DNA of 64,000 nucleotides from Isurus oxyrinchus (taxonomy: Eukaryota), in contig JANJGN010000034.1 of the NCBI GenBank assembly GCA_026770705.1, positions 3,224,001 through 3,288,000 on the forward strand, read 5' to 3'. The translations under genes were made by a program, and so were the position numbers. The notes beneath the pieces are model-generated. The model did not search any database and was not told the DNA's origin. It saw only the letters and a list, made by a program, of their open reading frames with translations. Of the stretch, positions 228 through 58,004 are shown one piece after another (positions within the stretch are counted from its first letter, which is position 1; every line of letters starts with the position of its first letter).

Positions 228-263
228 CGGCAATCTCCAAAGCAGCTTTTAGCTCATCTAAAC
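228..263 (-). CDS. Microexon E13 (36 nt, phase 1-1, class A); peptide SLDELKAALEIA
   Basis: Minus strand reads ttccgcttcctgcattctcttag|GTTTAGATGAGCTAAAAGCTGCTTTGGAGATTGCCG|gtgagt. An in-frame alternative AG 6 nt downstream would give a 30-nt exon. Confidence 0.85.
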
Positions 264-1099
264 CTAAGAGAATGCAGGAAGCGGAAAATTAACTAAACCA
301 CAGATATTGTCACCACGTTCACCAAAATGAGGGTGAAGGAATTTTCGTCTCTGCAAAGACAGCCTGAGATCTCATAGCTGTATATTACTTAGGTGCATAT
401 TTTGAAGATAATTTAAACCATCGGCACCCTATAATCTCCTAGAGCACGCCTAATGGAAACGTTTCTCAGTCATTGCATCTTCCTAATGAAATCGTTGCTT
501 TTTATCAGGAGGCTTGAATGGGCTGGAAAATGTGCTGCCAAAAAAGGTGACATTCATTATTGCCCCTATCACACGTAAATGAAGCACAGCTAGTTCCTAC
601 ATAGGGACATGCGCAGGTAATTCTTTAAAATGGAAGTTGCTCCGAGTGGGGCACCATCTTCAATCTCACTGCGGTAGTTTGAATTACCCATTTGGAGACA
701 AGCTTTAATTTGCGCTAATTGTCCATTATTAAGTAACTTCCACATAGAAAGCTTGCAAGCCTGTTATTTGCTGACGTTAAAAGCCCTATACTTATTTGGC
801 CAAATTGAATGCGGATGTCGTCACTGTTCTTTGTTTGCAATGCTCAAATTCAAACAAGTATATTATTATCATAATTAACTGATTTAATATTTACATAGAT
901 TTTATTCTAATCATCTTGCTTTTTTATGAATTGGATATGTCAGACTTTTGCAGGTTGTAAATTCAAATGTATTTGAAACATGATTATCCAACAGTTATAT
1001 TGAATCTGAATTTGCGAAGTGAGACACCAGGTGTGTGGTGTTGTAGAACTCGTCCATTGAGAAGGTACAGCGTTCGCTGTTATTGCTTCTCCTTCTTCA

Positions 1100-1405
1100 G
1101 GTACCATGCCAAAAAAAAGGATTTAGTTGACCATGGAGTTACATTGAATTGGCGTAGGATTAAGCTTAGCAGGGCACTGCATTGGTTTGCCGTTGCTTTC
1201 GGCAGTTTGGTTGACCAGAAAACTCTCTCGCTCTTGCTGCTATCTATTGGGTGCAATGGAATGATTTACAGGCCGGTAAGAAACCTGCTAGAAGACGATA
1301 TGAGCGCATCTCCGGTGGATATTAAGTCCTCCAGTGGGACTTGAACCCAGAGCTTCTGGCTGAAAAAATTGTCGAGATTCTACTCTTTGGACCAGCAGAC
1401 CTCCT
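1100..1405 (-). mobile_element. tRNA-derived SINE, family also at 2600-2870 and 44200-44460
   Basis: B-box-like GGGTTCAAGTCCCACT on the minus strand near 1332-1348. An internal AAGAGC..GAGAGTT-like motif is shared by the three copies. Confidence 0.6.
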
Positions 1406-2079
1406 GTACTCTTCGCAATGCTATGAAACTGACTGCAACTTCAGAGGCTCCTGGCATATGTAGGTTACAAGCAAAATGAACATTACTTAGATAGCAACAT
1501 TACTCTAAAAGGTAAAGAGCTCGTCAAAATGTTTCATATGAACAATTTTGAGCGATGGATTGCTATCGATTTGCAGAGCCAATGCCTTCGATATCCGAGG
1601 GCACGGCAAGTGATTACCTGGAAAGGGATCACAGCTACTTCTTTGGAGACCATCAGATTTAATGGTGGGGGACCTCGACACGTTATACTGTTGATACGAT
1701 TAGATAAAAATAGAAGCAGACAAGATCGATGTGATCCGGGTAGCCTTCAGTGGAGTTCTGTGGATGGACGGTCATGTGATAAATGTGCCAATGTCAGCAG
1801 ACAAACCCGGAACGATGAGGATGGATAATGTACCTTTTTGGCCTCATGGACGGAAGGTGTTGGGTTTGCAGAGGGGGGCGGTGAGTGGTGTTAAACACAG
1901 AATTAAAGGAAAGAAAATGGGCACAACTTTGTTGGCAACACCACATTTAAGTGTTTTGCAGTGAAAAAGGAGTTTGGATTCGAGCCAATGTTTGATAAGA
2001 ACGTTACGCCCAATCATTGGCTATGAGAGCAGAGTTGAAGCCATCATAGTTACATTCATAACCTCTACAATTTAATAAC

Positions 2080-2560
2080 ACACTTATTGCACACTTGGCT
2101 TCCTACATCTTCCCTGCATTATTAAAAGAACTGCTGCCCATGGCCCTAATCGAAGCCGTGTGCTTTCCACATTCAGCATTGTTAGCATTGGTTGACATGG
2201 TCTTCAGACAATCAGGACCTTGACTTTAGTATGTTTTCTATGATTTATTTTTCTTATGAATCTACTCTATGTCGTCGACCCTCCTTCTCTATGTATCCTT
2301 CTCTGCTCGTACAACCCCTACGGAGTTTTCTGTGCTCCCCTAATTTCAGACTCCTAAGCAATGCAAACGTTAATTGCTTCCACATTGCTTTCCATGCTGT
2401 CGGCTGTCGAAAGTATTAGCGCACAGATGTGGTACCATCATCTCTTTGACTGAACCTGTCGCTGAAAAATGTTCATCGGAATTGCTTTGGTGCGTTCCTT
2501 TATATAATCGTGCTGCATGAATATAATTCATGTTTGTTGCAACCTGTGAATTTGTACTTA
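2080..2560 (+). mobile_element. Decayed L2-type LINE 3' end
   Basis: Resembles the L2 tail I recall (ctgtgctcccctaatttcagactcct...ttaattgc). A similar segment lies at 53560-53740. Confidence 0.45.
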
Positions 2561-2599
2561 CGAAGTTGTCGTCAGTTTCAAAGGGGTACGGGATGAACA

Positions 2600-2870
2600 G
2601 CGGGACTTATGCTGCAATAGGTATGGCCTCTACTTTTCAGCCAGAACCTCCAGTTTCAATTCCCACTCCAGGACTTAAGAGCCATGGACGCTGCACTCCT
2701 CATGTGGTAAACAGACATATCATCAGCCCGCAAATCCGCCAGATACACCTGATGGTAGGCGGGAAGAGCAGGAACGTTTTCAGGTGAGCCATATTCCCAA
2801 AACTTGCAGCAAACCCAATGCAGTACTACGCTGAGTACAATCATGTACCAAAACAATCTAAGTCCATTGT
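2600..2870 (+). mobile_element. tRNA-derived SINE copy
   Basis: Head cagccagaacctccagtttcaattcccactccaggactt, colinear with the copies at 1100-1405 (-) and 44200-44460 (+). Confidence 0.6.
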
Positions 2871-3900
2871 CAAAAAGCCTTTTTTGGGTGAGAGGGGAGA
2901 TTTTTGAGACTGGAACTATAACGGGGACAGCACCATAGCTTGAAGAGAGAGATAGAGAATAGTTAACCATATCAGCTAACACGTTGACCATTTTCCTAGT
3001 CTGTATTTAAATGAACAATTTGATGTCATGAAGAACAACATGGAGAGAGAGGGAAAAAAAGAAGTTAGAAGTGAAAACAGTGATGTTGATTCAAGTTCAG
3101 GGCTAAAGCTATTTGGAGACGTTCAGGGCTCTCTTGACACCTAAACATATACTTTAGCCAGGATACTAGTGGAATACAACAGCACAGTATTATGGCAGCT
3201 GACCAGCTGGTGCTGATTCCAATGACGAATAAATTAAAGAGTTAATCAGTCTTCTTATTGGAAGGCTGGACTGATGGGATATGACAGATAGGTTTATGGT
3301 GACAGTTTATCGCAGGAAAGAAGCTTAATCTAGTGGTTAATTTTTAATTCCAAGATGATATTTTAATAATGGAATTTTCTTTTTCCAGAAAGATCGTAGG
3401 TGACTGTGTATCATGTGATACATTTAGATCTGGCTGGAATGAATGTACCATATCCCTTTTAGACTGTGTGCCTTGAATTTTGTACAGCACAGATGAGTTT
3501 CACTACACCTGACAGAGTGCCAGGGTGAGTCATGATTTCACTGGGCTCTAGCATATCACAGGTGGACATGGGGTCGCAGTTGGAATCAGTCTCTACAGGC
3601 AAGTATGAAGAAAGGCCAAAACACTGTGTTATGTAAATGAATAGAGGGAACAGTTCTTATCCTGGGGGAGACGCAGAACAAAACAAAACAGGTTTGTGGC
3701 CCGGAAATGGGTGTTGGGGACTTTGATGCAACGCGTTGAATACAGATGGCATTACCTATGGCTGCTAACTGCGCCTTGCGATATTACACGAGATGTTAGT
3801 CTGAATTGGCTGGACATGAATATTTGCTGTAGAGTTTACGTGGAGGAGGTTCATTAGGGAGGGAAAAATGGTAAGTTGAAATCATGGCGACAATTATTAA
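2870..3900 (-). mobile_element. Decayed L2 LINE ORF2 fragment
   Basis: The translation LADMVNYSLS...GAVP..VP resembles the L2 pre-RT motif LADIVNxSLSSGxVP. The extent beyond ~3000 is uncertain. Confidence 0.45.
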
Positions 3901-4059
3901 GATTTGGTCTTGCACTAAATGCTCCACCACAGTGAGTGCTGTCGATCTCATTCCCCACTACAGCAACAACCCCATCACCCCAGCACACGATGGCCGCACC
4001 TGCTCACCCATGCCACGACCACCACGCCTTTGGGTTCATCAACATGACATTGCATTAGC

Positions 4060-4410
4060 AGGTCACGGGATGTCCACTGCAGAACGCTAGTCTAATGTGC
4101 AAACCTGGGTTCAAATCGCACATCGACAGCAGGTGGAATTTATATTCAATTAATAAACCTGTATTTGAAAGCTAATTTCAGGAGTGCCGACCATAACAGC
4201 TTTCCTGTTTTGTTAAAAATAATAATAATGCTGTTGACTAATTTCGTCGAGGAAGGGAAATCGGCTACTCTTACCTGATCTGGCAGATATGTGACTCCAC
4301 ACCCACAAGAACGTGATTGACTCTGATTTTCCCGCTGACCTCAGTTCAATGTCAATTAGGGATCACAATGAACGATAATGATGCTCACGTATCATGAAAC
4401 AACTTTTTTA
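4060..4410 (+). mobile_element. tRNA-derived SINE with LINE-like tail (family also at 12270-12580, 50880-51260; related minus copies 27900-28150, 63170-63420)
   Basis: B box gggttcaaatc, then gcaggtggaattt...cttacctg.tc.g...atgtgactcca...caattaggga. Colinear with 50880-51260. Confidence 0.75.
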
Positions 4411-7191
4411 AATTTCTGATGCATGTGTATTCATTGATCAATAAACGATTATTTGAAATATTTAAACTAAATTTTATACAGATTTAAAAAAATATAAGTA
4501 AATATTTCAGCTTCTGATTTCACCCTACGTATATGTAGTAATCTTTATTTCCGTCGATGTATTGTTTTATTATGTGTCTGCCGCCTTTGTCGGCTGTGAA
4601 ATCCATTGAGACGAGCTGCTTGAAGAACTTGTTGATATAACTGGAGCTAGACGTGGGGAAATTCCCAGAGAATAACTTTGGGATCAGTTGAGGTATAGGA
4701 GAATAGGGTTGGTGGGATATGTCACCCCAGATAGAGCGTGAAATTTCCCAGTGAGATAGATTAGGCTGTTGACACACCATTTCAATAAATATCAATTGTT
4801 TAAATTCTTAGTTTAGTGTCTAAGTACACATATAGATGAGATCAACATTATTGCATCTCCTAAAAAATGTCTACCCTTTACCTTTAAATTTGTAAAATGT
4901 TTTCTTTCGAATGTATCCACTGTTATCATTCCCTCCATTGTCTTTACAATGAACGAAATGTGTTTATCCAGAATTTATGGCGTAGCGACCTGAAGCCTTG
5001 CCCACTGCTGCCTGCTGTTTTCATCAGTGATCACAAGTGTGCTTGTTAGCGCTGAGGCTGAAGATAAGAATGAATATTTCTTGGTCCGATCCCAACGTCA
5101 TGCCTCTGGTAATTAACTTCATAGTTTGCAACTAAGTCTGTGGTGAGTGCCAGACGTTGTACCACTGCTTTTGAAACCCCGGCAAAATTCATTATGTTCA
5201 TTGTAGTCGATAGGCAATCTGTTTATGGCGACGCTGTAGGTTGTTTTGCACTTAACTTGTTTTTCTTTGACAAAGTCACGCGATATTTTCATCTCTTTAA
5301 TTGACAGGGTGGCTTCAAAACATTTTTCTCCCTTATGAGTTTCAGTTTCTAAAGATGATAGTGTTTACAGGACTTCTACAGTGTACAGAATTTACTTGAG
5401 AGCCAAGCATAAATGAACTTGGACGATGATTTAGTTTAGCAATCCGTGCTTTTTGTATCTTTACCCTGGTCGCTGTCTCTGGGGCTAAATGAAAACCAAA
5501 CGTGAATTTAGCTGTTATCTTTGCATTGTTGTAGTAGAGTAACCATCTGTTAGATAACAGCCACAGTAATTCAACAGTACCAAAATTAGTGAAAGCAAAA
5601 CAGATCCTTAATTACACCAATAGTGATGAAAAAAAATTATTGCATATTAACATTTTCAACAAGTTCCTCTCAATAATGTTGCATTTTTGCGCACACATAA
5701 CCCCACTGCTCTCTTTCAAATGACTTATCGGGACATTGTCCACAACCAGTTTCAAGGGGATTCTTTGTATTAATTGTTTGAAATGAGATAACTTGAAGAT
5801 CTGACTGCTTTTCGAGGTACTACAAGACCATATGATATGATGCGTTAGCGGGGTCGATTGTAAGGCAGGTGGGGAAAAATAAAAATAGACATAAGGACGC
5901 ATCTTCGAAGAAGGCTGTAGGCTATAGAAGGGGCCACATTTGCGAAAGTCGGCAGAATTAGCAAATTCATAACTCTATGCATATATGAATAAATAACGAT
6001 GCTTATATGTACCTGAATCATTGTTACAGAAGTTTCCTGCTAAATAGAACTGCCCTTTCTGTAATATTACCCTGACAATGTACAGGTTAATTTTCCCAAA
6101 AACTAACTGAACAACGTTTGGATGTGGATTGTAGCCGGAAACTATGATAATAAGTGTGATTGTACGTTAAACAGGCAGATTTTATGGTGAAAGTGGAAGA
6201 AAAAACCAGTGACGCTGAACAAGCAGCATCTCATCAGATAGCCACCACGCTGTAGAAATTATGTTGTCCTTTCCAGAAGGGGCGCCAAAGAGTCTCCGGC
6301 CAAGGTGTGCGACTCCCACCTCCAATCCATACGACACTAATTATATAGGGCTATTATTTCTTGCAGACCAATAGACAACAAGATCGTAAAATGATATTCC
6401 TCTTTTAAAAATATTTAGAGAGCAACTAATCTGAAATATTGCCAATGTTTTTACGTGAGCCGCTTTCATTTGAATCGAGCTTTGCAAGGGACAATAGGAA
6501 GAGTGTTGCACCTTTTTTGCCAAGTCAGTGTAGGAGGATTTAGGACCTCAATTGTTCTACTCACCGAATGGGTACAGCACTCAACTGGAGCTCAGAGTGT
6601 CTAATACTTATATTAACGCCAGATAACATAGATGGTTTTACTCATTAATTGCTATAAGCCGGCATTCATAAAGTTAGATAGATTGATCTGAGTGAGGGTT
6701 CGTGTGGAGCAAAAGCACTGGCATTAAGCCATTGGACATAATATCCATTTCTAAACTGTATATAAAGCATATTCTCAGTTAGTCTGAGCTGTAGCTGCTA
6801 CATGTCATTATTCGGCTGTTTTTTGTTCTTATTTATTTTGCTTGGTTCACTGTTGGGTGTGCCATGATCAGGGTATGACAAGAGTTTCAGCATTTCATGT
6901 TCAAAGAAGCGAACAAACAGAACTGAAGCCCTTCAACTCATCGCTTTGCGAGTTTTAACGGGATGATGGTTCAAATTGTCCCTCACTGGCATTTTTCTGG
7001 AATGGTATCAAATTATATAGGTCAATGTTTTTGAGGTGATCATGAATTGGTGCAACTGAATAGTGAAAAATATTTCAGGGGAGTTAACGGCATTCAAAAG
7101 TTGCTTAGCACTCTTGTGCATTTAGATGAGATGGCAGCCTGTCTGGTATTCGAACATGCTAAAGTTCATCATAAGGTATTTTACTACTTAC

Positions 7192-7218
7192 TGCATTTAA
7201 GCTGAAGGTCTTCAAGTT
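7192..7218 (-). CDS. Microexon E12 (27 nt, phase 1-1, class C); peptide ELEDLQLKC
   Basis: Minus strand reads ctaat...gcctttggcgtttag|AACTTGAAGACCTTCAGCTTAAATGCA|gtaagta. Paralog of E8. Confidence 0.9.
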
Positions 7219-8530
7219 CTAAACGCCAAAGGCATGGTAAATGATTAGATACTTGCCGAGCTAAATGCAACGATTGTCTGAATTCCTTTTGTCACCAAAG
7301 AGGCAGGAGAAATAATGCACAATTGATAACTTCTCAATTGAGTCAGCGCAGATGCCAAGATATTGTATTTAGTCAAGACCTCTGCCTGCATTTAGCCCGT
7401 AGCAATCATCTTTGCTTTTGCAAGGAAAAACGTTTTTTTGTCGACCTGCTGCATTATTTGTCAACCCAACAGCTTTGTTCCAAAGTCATTTGTCTATTGT
7501 GGTTTGATATCTTTCTTGAACACTAAAAAACAATAACTGAAGTAAGGCTGAGTTTTTTTTACAGCCTATTTCATCCTCTAGTGACAACAGAGAAGAAACA
7601 TTAAGAAGCACATTGCCTAGGATAGGTTAATTATAAAGGAAACAAAAAGTCGCCGGCTGAATAATCGGTGCTGAATTCGTTTGCACCTACTTTGCACTCT
7701 TTGCTAAAAGGGAAAAGAAAATGCCTCACCAAATCAATGACTGCCAGAACACGAATCTGATATGAAACTGGGAAGATTCGGCCCAGTGATAGGCTGATAT
7801 TATACGCTTTGAGGCAAAATCTCCACCGCCCTGCACAGTGCCTGTGAGTTGAGACTGATAAGCTAAGTGACATTGCCTTTTTCCATCACCACTTGACGAA
7901 GGTCCACTCTTCCTTCTTGTCTATCTGTCGCTTAGATCCTAGGTGCTGTTTACTCACCCATTTTTTGCTTGTTTCTATTTTTCCTCCATAGAATAGTGGT
8001 TATTTGACAATTCACCAGTTATTGTTTGCCCTTTAGTTACACTTCATGCACCTGAATATTGCAGAGATGGGAAGAATGGCTGCTAGTCTCAGAGAACACG
8101 GTCACTTCTATGCTCTCCTTGAAGTTATCCATTATTCCAAGGTGGCGACAATGGTCACTCCTTCACGATTACTCAATAAAACTCTGAGAGCTGCCAATAC
8201 TTGGGAAGAATAATCACAAAACCTCAGTGCTACAGTAAGAAAGCTCACTGCCAGTTTTGTTACAGCGGGCAGAATGCCCCATGAATGACAACTTGGCGAC
8301 AAAGTTTAGGAGATTTCTTTATGCCACAGTTTTGTCTCTGATCGTTAGGATTGCTTGCACGGGTTGGCAAGAACATTTTGCAGAGAGCTCGAGGGATGCA
8401 GTACACCTCACATAGAAAGTACTACAAACAATGGGTCCGTTTTTAATCTTTTCACTTACCCTTTGATTAAAATTGAATGTAAATTTTCGAACTTACATTT
8501 TCAAGTTAAATACCCATTTGAGGCGCATAC

Positions 8531-8557
8531 CTTTTTCCTTGTTACGCAGTCTTTGTT
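8531..8557 (-). CDS. Microexon E11 (27 nt, phase 1-1, class B); peptide EQRLRNKEK
   Basis: Minus strand reads cctctttttctgcacag|AACAAAGACTGCGTAACAAGGAAAAAG|gtatgc. Confidence 0.88.
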
Positions 8558-9061
8558 CTGTGCAGAAAAAGAGGTAAACACTGGTTGAAAATATTAGCGA
8601 ATAGATACATTTTGAGAAGATACCGGCTAGAATTTTAATTGTAGAAATGCATGCCTGACAGAAGGGAAATGAGAGCCTCGTGTAAAGGCGAATCACTCGT
8701 TGTAAGACACCCACCTGATATGTAGTTCCCCGGATTCAACATAAAATATAACAATAGTAACAAAACAAGAGATCGATGGAATTCCACCAATTTCAATGTG
8801 ACTGAATAATTAATGAATTGCTAACCTTTTCCGACAAACGTAAATGCATGCAAACAATTAATTCTCGTTGAAGAGTCGGTGGCAGCCGCTTAGCTGGGTC
8901 AAACGGGTTACCACTGATCCTAGAGGAAGTCCCAACATCTCCATTTCTTGGGCAGCAGGCGAAATTGTCAGTAGCGCCTTGATCCTGAGAATGATCAGAA
9001 AGGTGTATGCATTTTTCATGTAATCAATTAAGTGACGGCTCAGAGAAGCATCTATCGGTGT

Positions 9062-9091
9062 GGGGGGGGGGGGGGGGGGTGGGGGGGGGGG
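9062..9091. repeat. Poly-G tract
   Basis: About 30 nt of G with a single T interruption. Confidence 0.95.
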
Positions 9092-11175
9092 AGTGTCGTT
9101 GCTGAACGTGTTAAGTGACAACAGGTAAATTTCAAAAAAAAACTTTTTTTAACGGCCTTATTCAACCTTCACTAGTTGCATCGAGCACATGGAATCCACC
9201 CTTGTGCCATGGATTGGGGCTTTCCGTCAACACCAATGCAGCAAGCCTCAAGGAAAACAATATCTGCTGGAAATAATAATCAAATTGGACACCCAAAGCA
9301 TCATCAAATAAAGAAACTTTGAGGCTCACCCGAACGTTCCAGAGCGCCTTTCACATTTTCCAGTTCTGAAAGAAATTATCGAAGTCCAAGAATCGTGAGA
9401 ATTTTACATTCAGTGCAACGTTGAGCAGCATAAATCCTCTGCAGAAATACAGTTGTTTGGATAATTGCCCGGCATTCAAGCCAGGATATTGGACTGCTAA
9501 AGGTCACTGGGACCGATTTTGCTCGCATTTTTCACTTTATTCAACAATCTGCTATTTCCTGAAGTTTTGTTGCTGTAGTGATGATTTTCATATTTGACAT
9601 AAATTCACGGATTACAGTTTCACTGTAGTGTATTTTTTTGTCGGCGTTGCTTATGCATGAGTTCTGATTGCTGAACCCGTTTTTTTTAAATTTGATTTTA
9701 GCAGGCCCGGCTTCTGGTTTACTGCACAAAAAAACCCTGCTCTCCCTGACTTAGTCTCCAACATCCCGCCTTTAAATGGCACCTTTGCGTCCACGCTCAC
9801 TGCATTTCAAGCTTTATAGTAAATCTTAGAAGATGAATTTGAAGTCCTTCAGAAGTAATGAGCATTTGGAGGTTCACTGGAAGCGACCATCAATAAACAT
9901 TGATTTCTCACATTCCTACCTCTTAATAATTGCTTCAATGTGAAAAGCTGGCGTTGGGTGTGTCACTTTAATAGTGTTCAGCCGTTATTGACACCATTGC
10001 CTCAAAACATCACTGGACCCGTCGATAAGAGCCACAACACCTCGACTAGCTCCAATACATCACCAGCATCAAAATCCAACTTCCTCCACCACTGCCTTCA
10101 TGATCCTCGAATCCGCAGTCAGTTCCTATTACCCCCCCAAGTCGGAGCATCCAACAACCTCGGGAATATCCCTCAACATGCATCGAATACTCTCCACGCG
10201 CTGACAACTGGCCAATCATCGACTACCCGCCAACCCCGCCCATTTTCTACCATCTTGTCCATCCAACAACAACAGCCCACCGACACTCCCGATAACCATC
10301 CCCCGCCCGTCACTCATCGAGCACACGCTAGCCCACCATACGCCCCCACCGCAAATCCCCCTGTCTCTGAACATATCTAATGTACTTACATGACTCTAGT
10401 TTGCCAAGTTGGAATTTAAACAGAAGGACCTTTAAACATACAGTTTCATGGCAGGAAGCACAGTGAAAATGAAAGGGCGATGCTTTCACTTTTCCCGATG
10501 CTACTGAAAGGACTCGGGGACCAGGTTAGCTGCATGCATCTCACCAGACCCGGGGCGGAAGTCCGGGAGAGAAATGTGTCCATCCCAACCACAATATGTG
10601 AAAAGAGTGGATAGGGAATCCGTCGGTGATTGCCACCCATTGGAGCCCCTGGGCCATCAGGGAAAACATTATATAGCATTTTACGTTAGCTACGAGGGTA
10701 GGCATGATCCATGTCCATGATTATAACTCCATTTGAATAGGAAATATGTCCTCCCCCTACTTGATTGCTTAATACCTTATACTTTGACGGCAAATAAATG
10801 AATTTCAGACATTCAGAGGCCTCATGCGACTGGAGTGTTTGCACCTTTGCAGCTCTGTTGTTAGTTAAGATGGGGTACTGGGGCAATGAATGGATAATTT
10901 TACCCTACTGGTATTCGGAGGAAAAATGGAAAATTGTTCAAGACATGGAAAACCAACAGTGACTTTTAGCTTCCAGTGAAACTAAATATTGGGAATTCAT
11001 TATTATGTACACCAAAAATAGTTTGTCCTGTTATGCATCCCAATAAAACTGGGTTTCTGAGACTCTGATTAATACAATTCCTAATTTCATGAACACATTT
11101 CCTTCAGGAATCTGTAATAATTTACACCTTGCACATTATACATTGTACACCAATTATAACAACTGGCTTTTGTAC

Positions 11176-11202
11176 CTTTGCTGATTTCCTTTGGGTCTGG
11201 CT
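11176..11202 (-). CDS. Microexon E10 (27 nt, phase 1-1); peptide KPDPKEISK (Pro-containing)
   Basis: Minus strand reads ttttaatttatcttgcag|AGCCAGACCCAAAGGAAATCAGCAAAG|gtacaa. Strong acceptor, moderate donor. Confidence 0.65.
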
Positions 11203-13123: not shown

Positions 13124-13150
13124 TGCATTTCAGCTGAAGGTTTTCTAATT
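13124..13150 (-). CDS. Microexon E8 (27 nt, phase 1-1, class C); peptide ELENLQLKC
   Basis: Minus strand reads ttccctctgcag|AATTAGAAAACCTTCAGCTGAAATGCA|gtaagta. 23 of 27 nt are identical to E12. Confidence 0.9.
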
Positions 13151-20318: not shown

Positions 20319-20345
20319 CTTTTTCTTTGTTGCTCAATTGCATGT
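20319..20345 (-). CDS. Microexon E7 (27 nt, phase 1-1, class B); peptide NMQLSNKEK
   Basis: Minus strand reads tatcttttcttgtatcaacacag|ACATGCAATTGAGCAACAAAGAAAAAG|gtttga. The 3' half nearly matches E11 (AACAARGAAAAAG); the donor is weaker. Confidence 0.82.
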
Positions 20346-29960: not shown

Positions 29961-31229
29961 CTGTATTCCAGAACCGAAAGGGTAGCGTTGTTAAAAAATA
30001 AAAACATTCTTCTTCTAGCCACTTTGATTCTTCTGTCGTTCACCTTGAATCTGTACCCTTTGATTGTTGCCCTCTCCCTCAATCTGCACGGCATCTTTCA
30101 ATCTACCATGTCAAGACCCCTCATTACTTTCAACATCACTATCAAATCTCCTCTCAGCCTTTTCTTATTTTCAGGGAACAAACTGGAATTATCCACATGG
30201 TCCTCGTAAACTACTTTAATCTTCTATGAAGGGTGCAGGGATAAAGGTAGGGTGATGGCGCTAGGTCATAATGTTCATTTGTTAATCTGGGAAGGCACCA
30301 CGGGCCGAAAAGCCTCCTTCTGTGCCGTTAAGATATGTGATTATGTGAAATTATTCTCATAAATCTTTACCACACTGCCTGTGGATAGTCCTTTATAATG
30401 CATGATGGTGGGAACTTGACACTATGCTTACATTGAGGTCGCATCACTGCTTTTTCAAATGTTCAAAGCAAGTTTCATGTTTTTGTTTGCAACTACTTAT
30501 TACTTTCATTAACCCGAGTGAATATTTGACCACTTTCTCAGCCTGCCACAATGACCGACTTGCCAGAATATACGTCAGAACTCAGTTCTGAAGCAAAAAT
30601 AAAACATCAATAGAATGTGCCCTTCATTGCTGTCCTGGCTTTTCACTCCATTCCCTGAATTCTGACTTGAACCTATAAAATTCTGGCCAAAAAAAAAAAA
30701 ATTGCGCTGAACTGAAACACGGCTGTAATTCTGCAACAAGCCAAAATAATAAGTTAAATGGGAACATAAGTGTAATTTATTTTACAAGTGTTAGTTAGAT
30801 ATTACTTTACATTTTAGACATTTGAGGTATTTTCACAAATAAATTAATTGACGGCATCATGCTGACGAGGGGGGGAATAATCTCTTTTACAAGCAAAAGA
30901 GTGTAATAAATAATTCAGGGAAATGTTCTGGGGGTATAAACGCGCCTGGTTTGTGAACAAAAAGTTAGTTTTGCACGAATTGTTTTCTATTGATACACCC
31001 ATAATTCAATTAGGTTGACTTTAATCAGACGAGGCATACAGCAGGTACAAACACACAAGATAATTCTGATTCTTCTTGTCCGGCAATGGAGTTTGCAAAT
31101 TAATTATTCTCCCAATATTAATGGGAAAATATCAGCAAATTTGATTCAGCTCATTTCACTGAGACGAAGCAGTTAGATGAAAAAAAAACAGAATGCAACG
31201 TTTTGGGGCTTATCAAATTCGTCACTCAC

Positions 31230-31265
31230 TCAATTCCTTTATTTTCTCCTGCAGGCCTTCTATTT
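31230..31265 (-). CDS. Microexon E6 (36 nt, phase 1-1, class A); peptide KIEGLQEKIKEL
   Basis: Minus strand reads ttttaatttcgttgcag|AAATAGAAGGCCTGCAGGAGAAAATAAAGGAATTGA|gtgagt. Clear a/d hydrophobic pattern I..L...I..L. Confidence 0.88.
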
Positions 31266-32060: not shown

Positions 32061-33879
32061 TTATTTTGCAATTCTTCTTTCTGGCTTCAAGGTCCTTCAC
32101 AATCAATTTGATCAATTTGCTGGCATGATCCTTAGTTTATAATTTTCGCAACCACCTTCTCTCTCATCCAGGGTGAAATTCATGATCTTTCATTCAGTCA
32201 AATTGACCTGTAACTGCTAACATTTTTCTAAATGTGTAAACACGTGCAATTGTTCTTAGAGGGCAGACTGCAACAGCAACAAATATACAAAAAAGTGGAT
32301 ATAGTTTCCAAGCGAAAAAGGAAAGGGGTTCACTTTGGCACGGTACCTTACCAGGCAGTGGGCCGGCAAAAATGAGCTGTATTGAAATTTCTTCGTTTTT
32401 CTAACTGTATCACACCTTAAATGTCAATACCAAGTCTAGGACGGATATTCAACAAGTTCCTGATGAAGCTGCATATTTTGTTTCTTTTTCCTTTTGTTTA
32501 AGATACAAATATTGGTTATAATATTTGGAGAATGCTTCCAGATTTGAAGGAAACACTGTTTAATATCATTTAAACCCACAAGAAAAGCATTAAGGAAAAC
32601 GAATTTAACGGGTGAGTGGAAAGGAAGCACCATCACAACTTAAAAATATACAAATGCCTCAGTGCTTCACAGCCAATTTATGGAATTTATGCTCTTGGTC
32701 CTGTAAAGGAACTGTAGCAACATGACTCTGACTAAGCCAATCGAGGTATCCATCGAATTACAAATTCCACCAACAGTAATTACACCTGGGTGCTGTCCAA
32801 TGAACGGAACTATTGAGGGATTTTACACCAGAAAAGTTTGAACTCGAAATTAACTTAAATTCATGAAATTACATTGAAACACTTAAACATTAAATAAATG
32901 CGTTGATGCATGTTTTTCAAAGAACAAATAAAATGATTAGTGAGCTAATTGGTATGTTTTACCTAGTATATTGCGGTCTGTTTCAATCTCTACAAGAGGC
33001 AAGTCATATAATGAATAAAATAATATTTCAGGATATGATGCGAACAAATACGAAATCATAATCATTCAGAACAGAATGTAAATGTCATTTATGCCATTGT
33101 GAATGTACCACCACTTTGAAAGAGCCATCCGTCTACCCTCTTCGTTCTCAACAGCACTGCATTATTTCATTTCCTTCTCTTTAGATAATTGCATTTAGAA
33201 AGCTCCTATTAATTGCTGATATATCTTTTCAAATAGGGCGTTCCAAATCATTAAAAAACACGCTTTGTAAAATAAAAAAAATGAAGTATTTGCAACAGAT
33301 CACCCTGCCCGAGCGAGAATTTGCCACCAGTTTTCTTTTTTGGACAACCATCTTTTTTTTTATATAGCACTGTTAAAATTCCCATTTGCCATCTGTGTTG
33401 TAAAGAGGAATACTCCGCTGTCACTTTCCCCGTAAACAAAAGCACTTTTAAATGCCACAAGTGAAGCGACTTCCGAACGTGAATATAACTAATTGTATTG
33501 AAAATATGTTTTCTTTTTGGATGATATTTGTGAAGTTATATCATTTACAACTGTGCATTTGCCATAAATACGCGGGCTTTATAAAGTGCACAACGTTAGC
33601 TGATGCTTGGAGGCTTCACTAACTGCGCTCATTAGGCTAAGCTATTAAAGTAAAGATGATTCTATATTTGGACTTCCGGGACTGTTACCTGAGCAATGTA
33701 GATGGGATAAGGATTAAAATATAAATCACAACTTTCTGTAACTTGGAGAATGCCTTTTTGTCTTGACCTAGCACACTGATGTTGGCTCTGGCGCCTCATC
33801 TGCGTGGTTTGTGCACTTTCGCTTCAGTCAAGTAGTTAATGTGGAATTTACCACCGATTCAACATCCAACAGGACATCC

Positions 33880-40517: not shown

Positions 40518-40544
40518 TATTTTTGTGTAGCTTGTCTTCACATT
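40518..40544 (-). CDS. Microexon E5 (27 nt, phase 1-1, class C); peptide ECEDKLHKN
   Basis: Minus strand reads tcttcttatcttcttatag|AATGTGAAGACAAGCTACACAAAAATA|gtaagtactaa. The donor context is identical to that of E8. Confidence 0.85.
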
Positions 40545-43849: not shown

Positions 43850-43876
43850 CTCTGTCTTTATTTTTCAATTGGCGTT
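43850..43876 (-). CDS. Microexon E4 (27 nt, phase 1-1, class B); peptide ERQLKNKDR
   Basis: Minus strand has a T-tract acceptor ending tttag|AACGCCAATTGAAAAATAAAGACAGAG|gtcagt. Paralogous to E7 and E11. Confidence 0.85.
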
Positions 43877-47467: not shown

Positions 47468-47503
47468 CTGTCTCAGCCAATGCATCCTTAGTGTTGATCA
47501 GTT
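47468..47503 (-). CDS. Microexon E3 (36 nt, phase 1-1, class A); peptide ELINTKDALAET
   Basis: Minus strand reads gcttttacag|AACTGATCAACACTAAGGATGCATTGGCTGAGACAG|gtaagc. It keeps the heptad Leu register with E2 and E4. Confidence 0.85.
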
Positions 47504-48582: not shown

Positions 48583-48609
48583 CCGTATCCTTTTCAGTCA
48601 ATGTTTTCT
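48583..48609 (-). CDS. Microexon E2 (27 nt, phase 1-1, class B); peptide EKTLTEKDT
   Basis: Minus strand reads gaattacag|AGAAAACATTGACTGAAAAGGATACGG|gtaagt. Consensus donor; the xxxLxxK[DE]x pattern is shared with E4, E7 and E11. Confidence 0.8.
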
Positions 48610-49685: not shown

Positions 49686-49809
49686 CGCTCCAATGTTGCA
49701 AATGTTTATGCATGGGAATATGTAATATGAGTGCAACTTCTCAGTGTTAAAATGCAGGAGACTTACTGATATTTAAATCATCTGCCACAGACGAAGAGTG
49801 ATATGGTAG

Positions 49810-50605
49810 GCAGAGATTAGCTGAAATTTCAAATAAAAGGAGGAAATGCTGGATGAACTGAGCAGGCTTGGCGGCATCTGTGTAGTGATGATCTGAGTTA
49901 AAGGTTTTCTGTTCACATGATTCTTCTTCCGACTGGAAGAGAGGGACATTGTGGTGGATTTTATGATGTTGAAGATAAAGGATGTGGCAGGTGGAGCAAA
50001 ACAGATGGCCAGGGACAGGTGGTAAATTGGCAGAGATTTGACAACGATGTCAAGGAGACAAGATAAAAGGTTTTCGTAATGATAGTGTAAAAGGCTAAGG
50101 CCGGTGCTACAAGTGGCATAAAAGTCAGATAACAAGATGAGGTAGTAGCAGAAGAACTGTCAATGCTCCCCTAAAGCAAAATGAAAGAGGAAAATACAGG
50201 CTGGCCTAACGAGGAAAAGCGTTGGGAAATAAAGGTCAAAATGGAGGTCCACTCACAAGGCCTGAAGTTGTTGAAATGATTTCTAAGACAATTAGGTTGC
50301 AAGGTGCCTAATTGGAAGATATGTATGTCTTCCACAAACCGCTCACTCCACAGAGCCATTCTGTCAAAATTTGTCCAGAGCTCAAACCTATCCCTGACTT
50401 TCTCTTTTGCCCCACCTACTCCACTCATGCTCTTTAGCAGTGTAAAGACCATTGCACTTCAACTTCTGTCCAGCTCTGAAAAGGGGGCATATGGACACAA
50501 AATGTTAAATCTTTTTCTTTTTCCAGAGAAACTCCAAGGAAAGCTAGTTTCCTCCAGCATTTTCTCTTTTTCTTTCACATTTCCAACATTAGCAGTATTG
50601 TACAT
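49810..50605 (-). mobile_element. Penelope-like element remnant with inverted terminal arms
   Basis: Translation EDIHIFQLGTLQPNCLRNHFNNF matches the Penelope GIY-YIG C-terminal motif (LIFxLGTLQPxGLN). The ends are inverted copies (aaatgctgga... versus ...tccagcattt). Confidence 0.75.
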
Positions 50606-50879
50606 TTATTATAGCTAAAATTTAAAACGGGTTACGTGGCAAGACTGGGGATTGTAGAAATTTTCAATATGTATTGGTGGTGCACTGAACTGATCAGCTG
50701 ATGGGTCACCTAACAGGGTCCGATACCAGGGTGGCCGTCAAAGTGCGGGCCGTTCTCATCCTCTGGCAGACAGCCTGCAGCCTCAGAGACCAGACATCAC
50801 ACTTTCCAGCACTTATTGGGCAATATGCCTGTTTGCAATCCTCCCTTGCTGCTCATTCGTGGCAATTACCATTTCATCA

Positions 50880-51260
50880 ATTGCAATGTCACTGGACTAG
50901 TAATCAGGAGACTCAGGTGAAGGCTCTAGGGACCTGAGTTCAAATCTGACGGCAGCAGGTGGAATTTGTGATCAATTAGTACATTCAGAATTAGAAGATG
51001 GCAACAGAAATGGTGATAATTATTGACTGTTGTGAAAACCCATCTGGTTCATTAATTTCCTTCATTCTTTCCGTTTAGGAATGAACATCTGCCAACCTTA
51101 CCTGGTCCGACCTGCACATGACTCCAAACATAGAGCAATGTGGTTGACTCAAATATCCGCTGTATTAGCTTAGATAAGCATCACTTCAAGGCAATTAGGA
51201 ATGTCAACAATTGTTGGGCATGCAGGCGACACCCTCATTGCGTGAGAGAATGACAAAACT
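50880..51260 (+). mobile_element. tRNA-derived SINE (family of 4060-4410), near full length
   Basis: aatgtcactggactagtaatc...gagttcaaatc...aaaacccatctggttc...ccttacctggtc...gcaatgtggttgactc...ggcaattagga. Confidence 0.85.
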
Positions 51261-51513
51261 ATAAACTGTCTATGATTTAAGTAAATTAAAATCTACATTC
51301 TTAGATAGGAAATGTCCAATGAATCCCTTATTTAAGTGACTTCAGGAGAAGCAGTATCTGAAGCCACAGCGACGTGATTGAATCTTAAATGATATAGCCC
51401 AGCCACAGTGTTCAAAAGAAATTTGGAAAGCACATCATGTGCTTGCCTTGCCAATGATGCCCACAACGCATGAAAGAATAATAAAAAAATATATATTAAT
51501 AATAAAGTGGGCG

Positions 51514-51549
51514 TGAGAGAGAGAGAGAGAGAGGGGGAGAGAGAGAGAG
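51514..51549. repeat. (GA)n microsatellite
   Basis: Direct reading. Confidence 0.9.
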
Positions 51550-51589
51550 GTAGAAGTAAGGGAACAAATGCAGGTAGCTGCGTTGTTTC

Positions 51590-52050
51590 CGGAGGGGAAC
51601 ATTGAAAATTGCCGTTCTGGAGAGAGAGGTATTTCTGGTGGGATCAAAAATTGAGTGCAGTTCGCGAGAGCTAAGGAACAAAATAGTTACAAGTTCATTG
51701 CTCAGCGTAGCTGATAGCCCACAAACAAGGGGAAAATAAATGTAGCACCTTATTGGAATGAAATTACAAAAAAGTGCTAGAATTATCGAGCAATTTTATT
51801 GGGAGATTAAATTATTCAGCAATAGACTAGAATTGTAATCGTGCTAAAGGCCGAATAAGGCGAGAGTTCTTGGAGTGTATTCAGCAGAAATTTCTTTATC
51901 AGTATGTTTCCAGTCGAAAGAGAAAGGACGACTTGTTGGATCTCGTTACTGCCAATGAGTTGGAACAAGTGAAGCAAGTGCTGTAGGAAAGCATTTATGG
52001 ACAGCCGATCATGTAATGTTAATGTCAATAGACTAGCAATCCACACGTTC
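51590..52050 (+). mobile_element. CR1 ORF2 endonuclease fragment
   Basis: Translation EFLECIQQKFLYQYVSSRKRKDDLLDLVTANE matches the CR1 APE C-terminal part. Confidence 0.8.
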
Positions 52051-52199
52051 TGACGAATGGTCTGTTGGGCACGGTTTCAAACTCCACCTCCAGTACAGTA
52101 AATTCACGCCCCCTTTTTGCGGCACTGGCTGCTTTAATCTGGTAAGTAAAGGTTTCTAATCACACAAATCTATTTTGAAAACAATTACGAAGAATATGT

Positions 52200-52930
52200 A
52201 CGTGCGGAAGCTAAGTAGATAAGCAGGTAGAGTGAGAAAGGCTGAAGTGTGGCAAGATAATTAGTAAGAGAGTAGGGTGGATCAGGGGAAGCGAGGCAGC
52301 TAGGCAGGGCAACAGTTCGGCAGCTTGGTGAGGTCGATATGGTGGCAGGTGGGCAGGGTAGTAGGTGGTTACGTTGGGTAGATTAGCAGGTTTTTGAGTT
52401 AGCTAGTTTGGCAGTTGGTTAATATTGTTGGTGCATAGGGTTGTAGTTGGGTGCAGTGTTGGATAGTTGAAATGCTCATGGTCGAGAGCGTGGCAAGTGG
52501 GAGGGCTGGTTAGGGTGGCAGGTGGTTCCGATGGAAGGTGGGAAGTGTGGTATGTGGGCAGGGTGGAAGTTGTCTAATGTGGTCAGCATGTCTGGTGGCT
52601 AGTGTGGCAGATGTGTGAGATGGGTAAAATAGGAACTGCTTTGTGGGTAAGGTGGAAGGTTGGATGCTCGGTGAGAATAGTAGGGTTTTAAATCGTCCAA
52701 TTTGATAGGGTGACAAGGTGGCTGAGTAAGTAAGTGTGTCGGGGCTAGACAGCTAGGGTAGGGGCCTAGTCAGGTCGGGTTGGGTGAGAAAAGATGACCA
52801 GACGGGGGTGGTCGTGGAGTGCTAATGGCTATTGGCATGTCAGTATGGTTAGTCGGGGGGTCAGGAAGATATTCGGGAGGTCAGTCTGTGTATGGATGGA
52901 AGTCTGCGGTGTTGGTGTGAATGAATGGAG
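52200..52930. repeat. G/T-rich degenerate simple-sequence tract
   Basis: Recurrent ggtag/ggttg/ggtgg/ggcag words with strong C depletion. Confidence 0.75.
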
Positions 52931-55900
52931 GGTCAGTTTTACACTTACTGCATTGTTGACCAGTTTTCTTTTACGAATACATCATTTCCTACGTACGTAT
53001 CTATCTAAGTCAGTTGGAACTGCGAAAATTCTCTGACCCTAATCCAGAGTTAGAGCATTTTTCAGAGGATCTCGGAAACAGGGGAATTGTCCATTGGAAG
53101 CTGAAACTTCCCTCATATGCCCAGGCTTCCTTGTGTTGGGAATTCCGAGGGGTCCCGTGGAATATCTACTTGGTTACTTCTGCTCTTCATTTATTCAGAG
53201 ACTGGAAGATCTACATACACACATCAATCATCTGCCCACCCTACCCACGTCCCGGCTTATCTACTTACCAACTACACACTTACCCACATTTCCATCTACG
53301 CATCACACACACATCATCCCCTCCCACCGACTTACCAATTTATAAAGCTACCCTACGCACATTTAAAACCATACTGGCTTAAGTGTCTCACCACTTACCC
53401 CTCCTTCATGTACCACCTACTCCAACTCATTCATCCATTTATCTACTCACCCATTCATCCACTCACAATTATACTTTTCAATTCTCTTATAATGAGCTTG
53501 GACCTTTAAACTTATCAACGAGAGTCATGAATTTGACCCTCCTTTCTTATGCCACCTACTCCAGCTCCACAGTCAGCGAAGAAATCCTCAGTTACATAAT
53601 TCCAGCCTCTTAAGCATTTCCGATTTTAATGCCGCCAACACCGTTGGTCATGCCTTTAATTGGACTAGCACTAAGATTTGGAATTCCATGCCGAGATTCT
53701 ACCATCCCTCTACCAACCTTTCCACTTTAAATGTTAATTACCACATAGAAACCACAAATCTCTAAAAGGAAGGAACCTCCAGGTAGCAAACGGAAATAAA
53801 ACATCTGGAGGAGATTTTATGTCTAAGAATTTCACTATAAAAAACATTGATTTTTTGAACACGAATTAACAGGCAAAATATTTTTTCGGTAACAAAAAAA
53901 TACTTTGATTATTATGTCCTACACAGATTTACCTCAGCTAGTTTTGAACATTGAAATCTGTCACCACCTGCAAACTTAGTCTTACTAAATCGGAATCTAC
54001 TGTATAGAAACTGTCATTTTGCATTCAATTGATTTGGACCACGACTTACATTCACCAGCAGCTGCATTCCATCAGATAATGCCCGACACAGTTAACACCG
54101 ATATAACAGAAATCTATCAAACCTCGCTCATACGGGTCATGACAATTTGAATAACACAAATATCTTCAGGCGCTTAATCTCAGACACAATTAAATGGTCT
54201 GGTGGGCTCTGGTAACACTGAAGCAGCAGCAATTGTTCTTATCCTATTCAGAATCTCGACGCTTCAACTATCCAGCCTTTCCACCTGCCTACCACACACA
54301 CTGTCTGTTCTATCCTCAAAGACGTGCTTCACAACAAGGATCTGTTCGAAAGCTGCCAAGAAGAAAACTGTTCCATTCATTTAAAAAAAAACTTGCCCGT
54401 TTTCTTTTGCATTAATTTTCAGCGCGTTCTGAGTTGCCAATCAAAAATGCTGTCTGAAAACTAACAGTGGAAGAATTAACTTTCTCTTTCCAGTTTCTTC
54501 TTACCTGGTCACCCCTATGGCAACCTCAAGTCACATAGGCATTTTTTGGAAACTACTGTCGGCATAATCAATGAAAAACTTAGCCCTCTTTTCAGAATAC
54601 TCCCCAGTCCAATTTGATCTTAAAGGAAGCATCGGTGATATAATGTAGAAAGCCTTTCCCACAGGCAAATAAGTCATCATATAAGGCATGAGTAAAACAT
54701 AATCATTTGGCCATCGGTACAAATGTGGATTAGTGTTATTTATCTGTTGATCTTCTTGTTGTGATTGTGACCTAGATTATGGTCTTATCTTTTTTAGCGC
54801 ATCTGGAAAGCAGTAAGTGACAACGAACTACACACCTCCGCTTTTCCGGTGGAGGCTTTCAGTGGTGTAATAGTAATTTCACCTCGGTCACGGCCTGCCT
54901 GTAAAATTGGCCAAGCCATTAGGGCGGTTTTCCAGCGTGCTATTGATTATCCTATTTACATCATGCTCCTAAAAATTTACTTTCTATCTAAGGTGAATTT
55001 GTAGTTCGTTTCTCGAATCTGGAACTTTTTGGCTTCAATTTTAATCATTCAGCTGAGGAAACTGGTATAAACCGGCAAACCATTATAACCAATAATGTTA
55101 TCTTCGCTCCAATTGATGGCCATCGATGGCCATGCTTAATAAAAGAGTGAAGGTAAAAAGATCTTAGTTTTTGCAGAACATTTTTTAGAGCAATGAAAGT
55201 AAAATTGAGTGAAGTTAAACGTAAGTTTGTCGCTGCTGCGGAATAAATTTCACCTAGGGCTAGCCGACACATTTGCCTATGGCACCAGTGCAAAACGGTT
55301 GTTGTGTTTCTACTGATGATGCACAGCTATGCTTGTTCCAAGGATTCCTTACTGAAATTAAATTTAAACAAAAGAACCTGTTATTTTTGATAAAATTACG
55401 CACCAAAATTCATTGGCAAGTCAACCCTACGGAACTCGTAATTCTGCCTGCATCCGTATTTTAATATTACTTCAATGAATTAACCGAGGTCACTCATAGG
55501 TGCAGGACAAAACTCATGTGTTAGGTCCTTTCCTTTGTTGAACATAGCTTTCTTTCCTGCATTAAGTCTAAACGACTTGACCACTCCAAATAAACAATAT
55601 GTATCATCTAGCTCAGTGGGGTTGGATGTTGCCGGGGCTGGAATATTACATCCTATTCCCCGGCCAGGTTGCAGTGTTTATTAATCAATGCATGATCTTG
55701 ATTTAATGCCTTCTGTGGGAAAAAATGACTGCACTGTAACCAGAGAAATTTCAAGTGCAACCTACAAGCAATTCCCCAGTTGTAAGCTTATGCATGTTTT
55801 TAATACAAGTTCTTACAGGAACAAAAACATGTCGTTCATTAACTCTTCCAAAGCAATGGAGTAGATTTCACAATCGTTAGTTTTCCTGTACGGTTGTTAC

Positions 55901-56554
55901 TCGGAATTACAGTGGTCATTGCACCAAAATGTTTGGTCACTCATCATTTGACAGATTTTCGGTGCAGCTCTGTTAAAACAAAGCAAACACGTGTCAATCA
56001 AACACTCTTAAACTTCACTTCTTTCTCCTAAGGGAGTCCTTACTTGAAGTTGTTAGACTTTGTGGCATTTTTACATTATGTGATGTTCTCTTTGGGCTAT
56101 AAAATATTTGGCAGTATCACACTGGGCAAATGTTTTGCCTGGCACCTGGGGAACAGTATAAAAAAAATCAACACTCCCTATTCTCACTCTCCTCAAATCT
56201 CCCACCTTGCTCGCACGCCCCCGTGTACATTCCATTGCCCAGCTCACATACTTCTCATTCTGTTTCTCCTCATACACCACACGACTGAACTGTTGGCTCC
56301 TCCTTCACATCACAATAATTCCGCCTTTCGCACATGTAGTTTAAATGTACAGGCAGCATGGAAGATCCAAACAGCTTGCAGGCCTGAGCTTAAACGTGAA
56401 CAACCTTAAAAAATATACTAGTATCTCACATCCACTAAGCAATATCCTGGATAACTTCAAAGAACCTGCGGTTTGCAGAACTGGTACACGTGCATCTGCC
56501 AACATCAAAGGCAAGTATCCATTAATCATAAAGCAAATTACTCTCAATGCTGAA

Positions 56555-56735
56555 TTTCGGAAATAAAAACAGAAAATTCTGGAAAAAAGCTCAACGGTTT
56601 TGCCAACATCTGTGGAGAGAGAAAAGAGTTTACGATTTCAAAAATAATCATTTTGAACTCGAAACGTTAATTCAGCTTCCCACTCCAAAATGCTGTCAGG
56701 CCTGCTGAATTTGTCCACCATTTTTGTTCTTATCG
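56555..56735. mobile_element. Penelope-derived palindromic short repeat
   Basis: Left arm ataaaaacagaaaattctggaaaaaagctcaac is an imperfect inversion of the right arm gctgaatttgtccaccatttttgttcttat. Confidence 0.7.
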
Positions 56736-57258
56736 CTTTATCATGCCTCATATATAATTATTAACCAAATTCTTATCAGGGACATGCCGGGAAGAAAGCT
56801 TTAGGATTGCGTTTTATCTACATCGATTGATCAAATGCACCCCCAGCTGTTTGTACATATTTGGACACTATGCGCCGTACTCCAGGACATTACATGCATT
56901 GGGCCTTTCTGTTCAATCGGCTCTAATTTGAGAACTGGATCACTGAGAGCTCCTGAGTGGGGAGTACACCTGACAGTATGTGTAATCCAACGTCGACAAT
57001 CAGGTGTTGCGTTCAGTCATGCTGCTTAGTTCCACCTGTCCATTCTCAGGCCAACCCGTTCGGGGGACTTTATTTCACGTTCCCAAAAGCCTTGGCAAAG
57101 GAACAAAGAGTGTTATCATCTTCTGAAGCTCAACGTTTCTTGGCGGCCCTAAGATTTTTCTCGAAATTTCTTTGCATTCCTCTCTTCTCACAGTGTACGT
57201 CTTTTGCCAGGGCATAAACCTTTCTCCAGATGGTGCTTTCTGCTCCGGCAAGGACACA

Positions 57259-57320
57259 TTCTCTCTCTCTTTCCCTCTCTCTCCCTCTCTCTCTCTCTCC
57301 TTCACTCACATACACACATA
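57259..57320. repeat. (CT)n/(CA)n microsatellite
   Basis: Direct reading. Confidence 0.9.
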
Positions 57321-57569
57321 CGCACTATCTCTACCTCTCTTCATGCGTTCACTGTTCCTCGAATCGCAGTTGCGCATTTCTTGACTCTCTCCAGAGCAGC
57401 TCGCGCTTTATTTCACAACTTGGTGCTGAGACCAACCCTACACAGCGCTCACTGATAAGACCTGCCTGTTTATGTAAATATGCAGCTTCTTTCAGGTTTC
57501 GGCAGGTTCACGCAAACAATCATCTTAGATGGAATATTGCCGGATGCCATTCAACAATTTAAATATGAT

Positions 57570-57800
57570 CTTTGTATTCGTCCAACATTGCATGCAATGG
57601 CTGCACAGTGTAATAACTGCAGGGTGCACTGTAGCAACTCACCAAATAACATTCGGCAGTGCCTTACAAATGAGCTCACTTTAACAGCTATGCTGACTAG
57701 ATTTCCATTGCATGGGAACCAAATAACACTAAAACATGCGCCATCCTGACTTGATACCCATATCGGAATTTTGTCTCCGATGCTGGGTCACGCTCCTGGG
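57570..57800 (+). mobile_element. CR1/L2-clade LINE 3' fragment
   Basis: gtgcactgtagcaactcacc...gccatcctgacttga...tgctgggtca, colinear with 43010-43200. Confidence 0.7.
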
Positions 57801-57968
57801 AGATCATCAACCACATTGATTAAACCTTCCAAGAAAATGACAGCAAATTTAGTGACACCCAATGCTGAGCAGTAAAACTTAGATTTTGCTGGCATTGTTG
57901 AGATTTCGTGGAGGTGTACGCGAACACATGCTTTTTTAATAACATCACCGCCCCCATTTAATTCTTAC

Positions 57969-58004
57969 CTGCTTGTTTTTGATTTTCATTTAGCTTTGCT
58001 ATTT
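57969..58004 (-). CDS. Microexon E1 (36 nt, phase 1-1, class A) of unnamed coiled-coil gene; peptide (x)IAKLNENQKQA
   Basis: Minus strand reads ttgttcttttgcag|AAATAGCAAAGCTAAATGAAAATCAAAAACAAGCAG|gtaaga. Strong acceptor and donor, open in phase 1, and the start (ttgcag|AAATAG) is shared with E6. Confidence 0.85.

Follow-up and report, generated by a model that had tools for sequence, protein, structure and literature searches.

A gene of approximately 160 micro-exons of 27 or 36 nt in Isurus oxyrinchus, predicted to encode a coiled-coil rod tipped with a B30.2 domain

Heptad exons in known systems and in gene A

Coiled-coil heptads on very small exons are known from butyrophilins and from the chicken BG genes. 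One source describes butyrophilins as carrying Ig domains, a membrane span, "a few" heptad repeats and then a terminal B30.2 domain (PMC4046983), and another reports that cartilaginous fish possess butyrophilins with IgV, IgC, membrane span, heptads and B30.2 (PMC12841164). For chicken BG, the former source gives 13-36 tail exons of 21 or 24 nucleotides (nt) per gene, with an IgV and a membrane exon before them and a 3' untranslated region exon behind; it also mentions a soluble BG-derived zipper protein that controls brush-border actin-myosin (PMC4046983). Here we describe gene A of Isurus oxyrinchus, which presents the heptad-exon plus B30.2 design in what is apparently a new form, within an apparently undescribed family of cartilaginous fishes. 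The starting point was a window of 64,000 nt (G000:C34:3,224,001-3,288,000), in which a hidden gene had been proposed by a sequence-only reading; gene A lies on its minus strand, and C34 coordinates are used for all flanking features. The window is an internal slice of gene A and holds 13 to 14 of its approximately 160 micro-exons. In the best reading, the predicted product of approximately 1,830 residues consists of a coiled-coil rod and a terminal B30.2 binding head.

Gene A resembles the butyrophilins BTN3A1 and BTN2A1 in having heptads on small phase-1 exons and a terminal B30.2. It differs from them in that no Ig domain was found upstream, where membrane-span candidates are at chance level, in a rod of about 235 heptads, and in a B30.2 that falls outside the BTN/TRIM group in our tree, though the nearest solved domain is the B30.2 of BTN3A1 (E 1e-25), with the same fold. 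The coiled-coil tail of chicken BG is likewise composed of many tiny exons varying by duplication; gene A, however, has 27/36-nt exons, about 160 of them, as well as a B30.2, and no Ig was found. TRIM proteins with PRY-SPRY (TRIM21, TRIM39, pyrin) also place a B30.2 after a coiled coil, whereas gene A shows no RING/B-box, belongs to a separate clade and has a far longer rod. The stalk unit of CD23 (FCER2), as cited in the sequence-only reading, measures 63 nt or 21 residues, equal to three heptads; in gene A, the 21-residue unit is instead split into 36+27 nt, the head is a B30.2, and the chain ends in SPRY, not in a C-type lectin domain. By the tests run on its sequence, gene A would be neither a butyrophilin, a TRIM, a BG nor a lectin receptor; the first two are set aside because the upstream searches turned up no exon for Ig, RING, B-box or lectin domains. 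The heptad exons and the terminal B30.2 do support the butyrophilin/BG-like design that had been suggested from the window.

Extent and structure of gene A

The gene A unit occupies the minus strand between C34:2,708,635 and position 3,430,467 or beyond, within approximately 1.0 Mb scanned around the window. Our catalogue comprises 163 micro-exons at C34:3,430,467-2,712,861, i.e., over about 718 kb (94 of 27 nt, 65 of 36 nt, three of 18 nt and one of 33 nt; 1,655 codons), against none on the plus strand of the same span. Candidates with internal stops were filtered out before this count; among unfiltered matches to the position model, one in 147 contained a stop, part of the span being training data. 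None of the 162 junction codons is a stop and 108 of them encode Glu. Introns have a median of 3.2 kb, six exceed 12 kb and the largest reaches 26 kb. Since a few catalogue entries are doubtful and a few exons seen in the scans were missed, about 160-170 micro-exons is a fair figure.

The two size classes also emerged with generic splice matrices. In a 464-kb scan, 45 and 29 of the 306 minus-strand candidates measured 27 and 36 nt, respectively, with at most 9 candidates at any other length between 15 and 79 nt, while on the plus strand the corresponding counts were 4 and 2 of 234. The first scans used approximate splice matrices; subsequent matrices were derived from the locus itself. The segments are probably spliced into one mRNA. 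Gene A would then be a vertebrate gene of 720 kb whose approximately 160 coding exons, 27 or 36 nt in size, are for the most part missed by annotation, and a natural system for studying how faithful splicing is achieved over long micro-exon runs.

The chain is closed by a B30.2/SPRY exon at C34:2,709,152-2,708,635 (L069:5152-4635; minus strand), which has a phase-1 acceptor and is entered in frame. The sequence-only reading had named B30.2 among the exons that the flanks might hold, and this one lies 515 kb beyond the window. Pfam recognizes SPRY (E 4e-15, passing the cut-off) and does not detect PRY in this domain; the AlphaFold model is modest (pLDDT 62.9) and confirms the fold only. Two B30.2 exons alone occur in 1.06 Mb, closing the chains of gene A and of the upstream paralogue B, and no micro-exon was scored by the position model in the 84 kb beyond the gene A B30.2 exon.

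The encoded rod consists of 18% Lys, 16% Glu, 16% Leu and 0.4% Pro. In peptides of 36-nt exons, positions 1, 4 and 8 are hydrophobic in 95, 85 and 97% of cases, respectively; in those of 27-nt exons, position 3 is hydrophobic in 72%. A Fourier peak at 3.5 residues reaches 0.76, compared with at most 0.25 in 200 shuffles. One 36-nt plus one 27-nt exon gives 21 residues, exactly three heptads, and in the distal half of gene A the two sizes alternate almost strictly. If unbroken, the rod would be about 245 nm long. The coiled coil had been proposed as a tail or stalk; accounting for about 1,655 of the roughly 1,830 residues predicted, it makes up nearly the whole protein.

Gene A grew by tandem duplication of exon blocks, and the copies of blocks of about 34 kb and about 71 kb share about 87% identity. 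Across 29 duplicated exon pairs with homologous flanks, the proportion of nonsynonymous differences (pN) was 0.047 and that of synonymous differences (pS) 0.103, with flank divergence at 0.110 and a nonsynonymous to synonymous rate ratio (dN/dS) of 0.44 (Fisher p 0.013; pN below the flank rate, p 8e-9). As pN lies below both pS and flank divergence, the segments are constrained as protein, and the duplicated exons are under purifying selection. A coiled coil is seen here growing through the duplication of three-heptad exon pairs.

Micro-exons in the window

Scanning both strands of the window yielded 13 minus-strand AG..GT segments, five of 36 nt and eight of 27 nt, totalling 396 nt. With the position model, which was trained on 116 exons lying outside the window, nine sites scored >10 on the minus strand. 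Together with a weaker candidate and a doubtful site, the segments are as follows (window coordinates).

57969-58004, minus strand: 36-nt phase-1 exon
48583-48609, minus strand: 27-nt phase-1 exon
47468-47503, minus strand: 36-nt phase-1 exon
43850-43876, minus strand: 27-nt phase-1 exon
40518-40544, minus strand: 27-nt phase-1 exon
32963-32989, minus strand: 27-nt phase-1 candidate exon with weaker splice sites, outside the 163-exon catalogue and apparently absent from the set of the sequence-only reading
31230-31265, minus strand: 36-nt phase-1 exon
30647-30682, minus strand: doubtful 36-nt site with a good acceptor, a poor donor and an atypical peptide; among the 163, probably false
20319-20345, minus strand: 27-nt phase-1 exon
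13124-13150, minus strand: 27-nt phase-1 exon of the Cys-ending class
11176-11202, minus strand: 27-nt phase-1 exon with two prolines, likely a rod hinge
9330-9365, minus strand: 36-nt phase-1 exon with two near-identical copies further down gene A
8531-8557, minus strand: 27-nt phase-1 exon
7192-7218, minus strand: 27-nt phase-1 exon, Cys-ending, with a duplicate of identical peptide 34 kb downstream
228-263, minus strand: 36-nt phase-1 exon with a duplicate of identical peptide 34 kb downstream, flanks 13% different

The hidden minus-strand gene of 27/36-nt phase-1 micro-exons encoding a coiled coil is borne out. All 13 segments of the earlier proposal (12 plus one tentative) were recovered with the same total length, and its heptad positions recur in the 13-segment peptide in 15 of 15 cases; as no coordinate list accompanied it, the set chosen here is one that matches its total and its heptad positions. 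An equally long chain on the plus strand or in shuffled sequence, named in advance as evidence to the contrary, did not arise: no plus-strand site scored >10, nor did any in 30 of 30 block-shuffled windows.

Paralogues and relatives

Gene A is one of five B30.2-tipped neighbours. In a genome search that scored 150 of 487 candidates, close B30.2 exons were found five times on C34 (2.71, 3.47, 4.82, 6.40 and 7.50 Mb) and once on C21, and more than 100 ordinary B30.2 exons on C21 ranked behind those of the C34 family. The latter C21 exons form one cluster at C21:83-118 Mb, in which the exon at C21:89,722,248 comes near the C34 family in score. Paralogue B (C34:3,474,119-3,975,000; L019, L081-L100, L121-L133) has the strand and design of gene A, with 59 micro-exons in its scanned part, and its B30.2 is 72% identical to that of catshark XP_038668997.1. 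The three other paralogues show micro-exon chains at their fronts.

In a midpoint-rooted tree of 31 domains, which did not include those at 7.50 Mb and on C21, four C34 domains and eight chondrichthyan proteins formed a 12-row clade with support 100/100, apart from TRIMs and butyrophilins. An Ig-less, RING-less branch is in this way added to the B30.2 proteins. Judged on the single domain, the best relatives come from catshark, skate, electric ray, basking shark and chimaera, and the family includes XP_038671249.1 and XP_038668997.1 (catshark), XP_069775385.1 (electric ray), XP_055510696.1 (skate) and XP_042191566.1 (chimaera). Like gene A, the chondrichthyan models combine a K/E/L-rich rod with SPRY and fall in the same B30.2 clade; unlike it, they are 200-945 aa long and often cut off or split. 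Pfam detected no RING, B-box or Ig in the six models scanned. Their automatic names ("TRIM39-like", "zinc-binding protein A33-like", "golgin-like") are misleading, a warning that proteins so labelled in sharks and rays can be fragments of such rods. The family appears to be restricted to cartilaginous fishes, chimaera included. The gene had been called lineage-specific, which holds for cartilaginous fishes as a whole and for no narrower group. The family is apparently undescribed: no paper on it was found in the literature searched, a coverage that excludes most subscription papers.

Public annotation splits one relative into two models, P0279 and P0277. Both are overlapped by the 945-aa catshark model P0175, in which 770 rod residues are joined to a B30.2, and which is itself truncated because its start is internal in P0279. 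RefSeq isoforms of such relatives differ by 6, 8, 9, 11 or 12 residues and in one case by 23, steps of micro-exon size; isoforms of this kind would be expected to rest on RNA. Three Atlas SPRY clusters bear unrelated automatic names. Their representatives measure 1,277 and 1,579 aa, with scores of 0.93 and 0.91 against the catshark relative, and 1,802 aa (score 0.76), the last a lead only. Searching with the single domain among longer proteins gave no homologue at E 0.001, and a profile search gave one long family member among the best 120 of 172 rows. A "zinc-binding protein A33-like" entry of shark skin mucus, listed with a single peptide and 55 kDa, was not assignable to the family and was left unused (PMC10707392). 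Coiled coil and B30.2 are also combined in the bowfin models P0205 and P0204, one of them with an N-terminal hydrophobic span. The bowfin domains group with teleost TRIM/BTN and not with the gene A family, which suggests a separate origin of a similar layout.

The 5' end of gene A

Upstream, gene A is bounded by the B30.2 exon of the same-strand paralogue B (C34:3,474,636-3,474,119), and its 5' end therefore lies within 43.6 kb. In this interval, none of the 105 minus-strand frames of >=62 aa matched Ig, RING, B-box or lectin domains in Pfam, and two matched reverse transcriptase. Over 1.46 Mb, a butyrophilin N-terminal profile returned nothing below E 0.9 (control: 56 proteins) and a TRIM N-terminal profile reached a best E of 0.69 (control: 85 proteins), and a motif scan found no RING or B-box. 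Genome searches gave no C34 match among the 133 listed for C-type lectin (150 of 616 candidates scored) and a nearest C34 match at 13.07 Mb for V-set (150 of 3,319 scored); both are weak negatives because only part of the candidates was scored. The idea of a tail or stalk belonging to an Ig or lectin receptor is not supported, no such exon having been found in the interval within which the 5' end must lie. At C43:0.02-6.0 Mb, C-type lectin exons are arrayed in tandem on a very large scale.

The only membrane-span candidates before the gene A heptads are hydrophobic ones at chance level. At C34:3,440,839, a strong donor follows an in-frame ATG, and another ATG lies in the first 36-nt exon, so that a start without a signal is possible. 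A signal-peptide start was initially favoured and was demoted to a rival by a chance estimate and by blank genome and paralogue searches.

Proposed role and alternative explanations

We lean slightly towards the view that the approximately 160 segments yield one protein of some 1,830 residues, a coiled-coil rod that bears B30.2 heads at one of its ends and is probably a cytoplasmic tether or scaffold. The micro-exons would be spliced into a single mRNA in which the 36+27-nt pair serves as the building unit of three heptads; extra 27-nt exons would shift the register, and exons with Pro or Gly may act as hinges. Parallel self-association would cluster the B30.2 heads for avid binding at about 200-245 nm from the other end, and rod length could be tuned by skipping symmetric exons. 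Such a rod would work as a long tether or scaffold in the cytoplasm, and a cytosolic location is itself judged marginally the better guess. For such a rod, the BG-derived zipper protein provides the closest functional analogy.

The main rival reading keeps the same gene and places its product outside the cytosol, as a secreted or membrane-anchored, disulfide-locked fibre made via a 5' hydrophobic exon, be it in mucus, in an egg or sperm coat, in matrix or as a collectin-like recognition molecule. We consider it possible and distinctly less probable than the cytoplasmic rod, against which several observations nevertheless weigh. A hydrophobic candidate exon lies at C34:3,438,617-3,438,692, 8 kb before the first micro-exon, and is joined as evidence by the donor and in-frame ATG at 3,440,839. 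In paralogue B, Cys takes the core peptide position 4 in 12 of 25 36-nt exons, which suits an oxidising, extracellular setting, and family B30.2 domains have 0-2 Cys, compared with 0-7 in TRIM/BTN domains. A 111-nt phase-1 exon starting with hydrophobic codons is common to paralogues C and D (C34:4,005,537-4,005,647 and 4,859,457-4,859,567); it lies ahead of their first micro-exons with both ends conserved, and may hold or follow the start codon. The P0151 and P0278-group models also start hydrophobic, several models being visibly truncated, and no family model could be clearly identified as the orthologue of gene A. The candidate exon of gene A does not, however, exceed chance (0.2 expected in 8 kb and 1.1 in 43.6 kb), with 18 equally good ones on the same strand in 713 kb of introns. 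Its splice sites score poorly (0.5 or -2.0 for the acceptor, 0.7 for the donor), and nothing similar was found in the genome by DNA and protein search or in the paralogue 5' regions. In addition, the rod has four N-glycosylation sequons where 6.2 are expected. P0279, the longest N-terminal model, has no long hydrophobic stretch at its start, as read by eye.

A cytosolic rod could also be an innate-immune sensor or decoy, a RING-less TRIM-like protein that uses its clustered heads to bind pathogen surfaces of a repetitive kind. In TRIM5, TRIM21, pyrin and BTN3A1, which are solved relatives, recognition falls to the B30.2, and a dimeric coil with a B30.2 is the TRIM layout. This role is nonetheless unlikely, given only five such domains on C34 versus more than 100 ordinary B30.2 exons on C21, a clade separate from TRIMs and butyrophilins, the closeness of the paralogue B domain to its catshark counterpart, and a rod of 1,650 residues that is far beyond TRIM coils. 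Very improbable, in our view, is that gene A is not one gene, but several shorter genes or decaying duplicate exons that are no longer spliced. The six long introns and the split of a relative into P0279 and P0277 would fit this, and no gene A transcript was seen, so that splicing into a single mRNA is predicted from sequence and from the automatic models of relatives. A look-up of RNA holders for the gene A B30.2 exon listed none. Contigs of four runs guessed to be RNA did not cover this exon, and those of a set of four such runs, one of them reused, placed only two 40-nt pieces, less than 90% alike, on the paralogue B exon, both results being uninformative. Against a division into several genes stand the single strand and phase, the lack of any intervening terminal domain, the one stop in 147 unfiltered matches and the purifying selection on recent duplicates, as well as P0175, whose rod and B30.2 span both split models.

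With the cytoplasmic rod as the preferred reading, we tentatively suggest, at somewhat less than an even chance, that a class of giant filament or tether proteins peculiar to cartilaginous fishes predates the divergence of chimaeras and sharks and has been retained by them. Its members would have rods of at least 1,600 residues encoded almost entirely by at least 160 symmetric 27/36-nt exons over at least 0.7 Mb, lengthened by block duplication, tuned by skipping and tipped with B30.2, and would possibly be secreted and disulfide-locked.

Other features of the locus

The 5' regions of two paralogues share a 22-kb block of 76-84% identity (C34:4,828,230-4,850,373 and 6,434,060-6,455,835), and no frame of >=150 aa was present in its first copy. 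The window contains a 128-aa plus-strand frame at 61265-61651, which by eye resembles a LINE remnant and has no Pfam match. Two further elements lie in gene A introns. One is a simple repeat of about 6 kb at C34:3,134,000-3,139,900 (L032), which yields long spurious open frames, and the other is a plus-strand element at C34:3,115,384-3,121,420 (L030) with several frames of 235-632 aa, by eye resembling a non-LTR retroelement.

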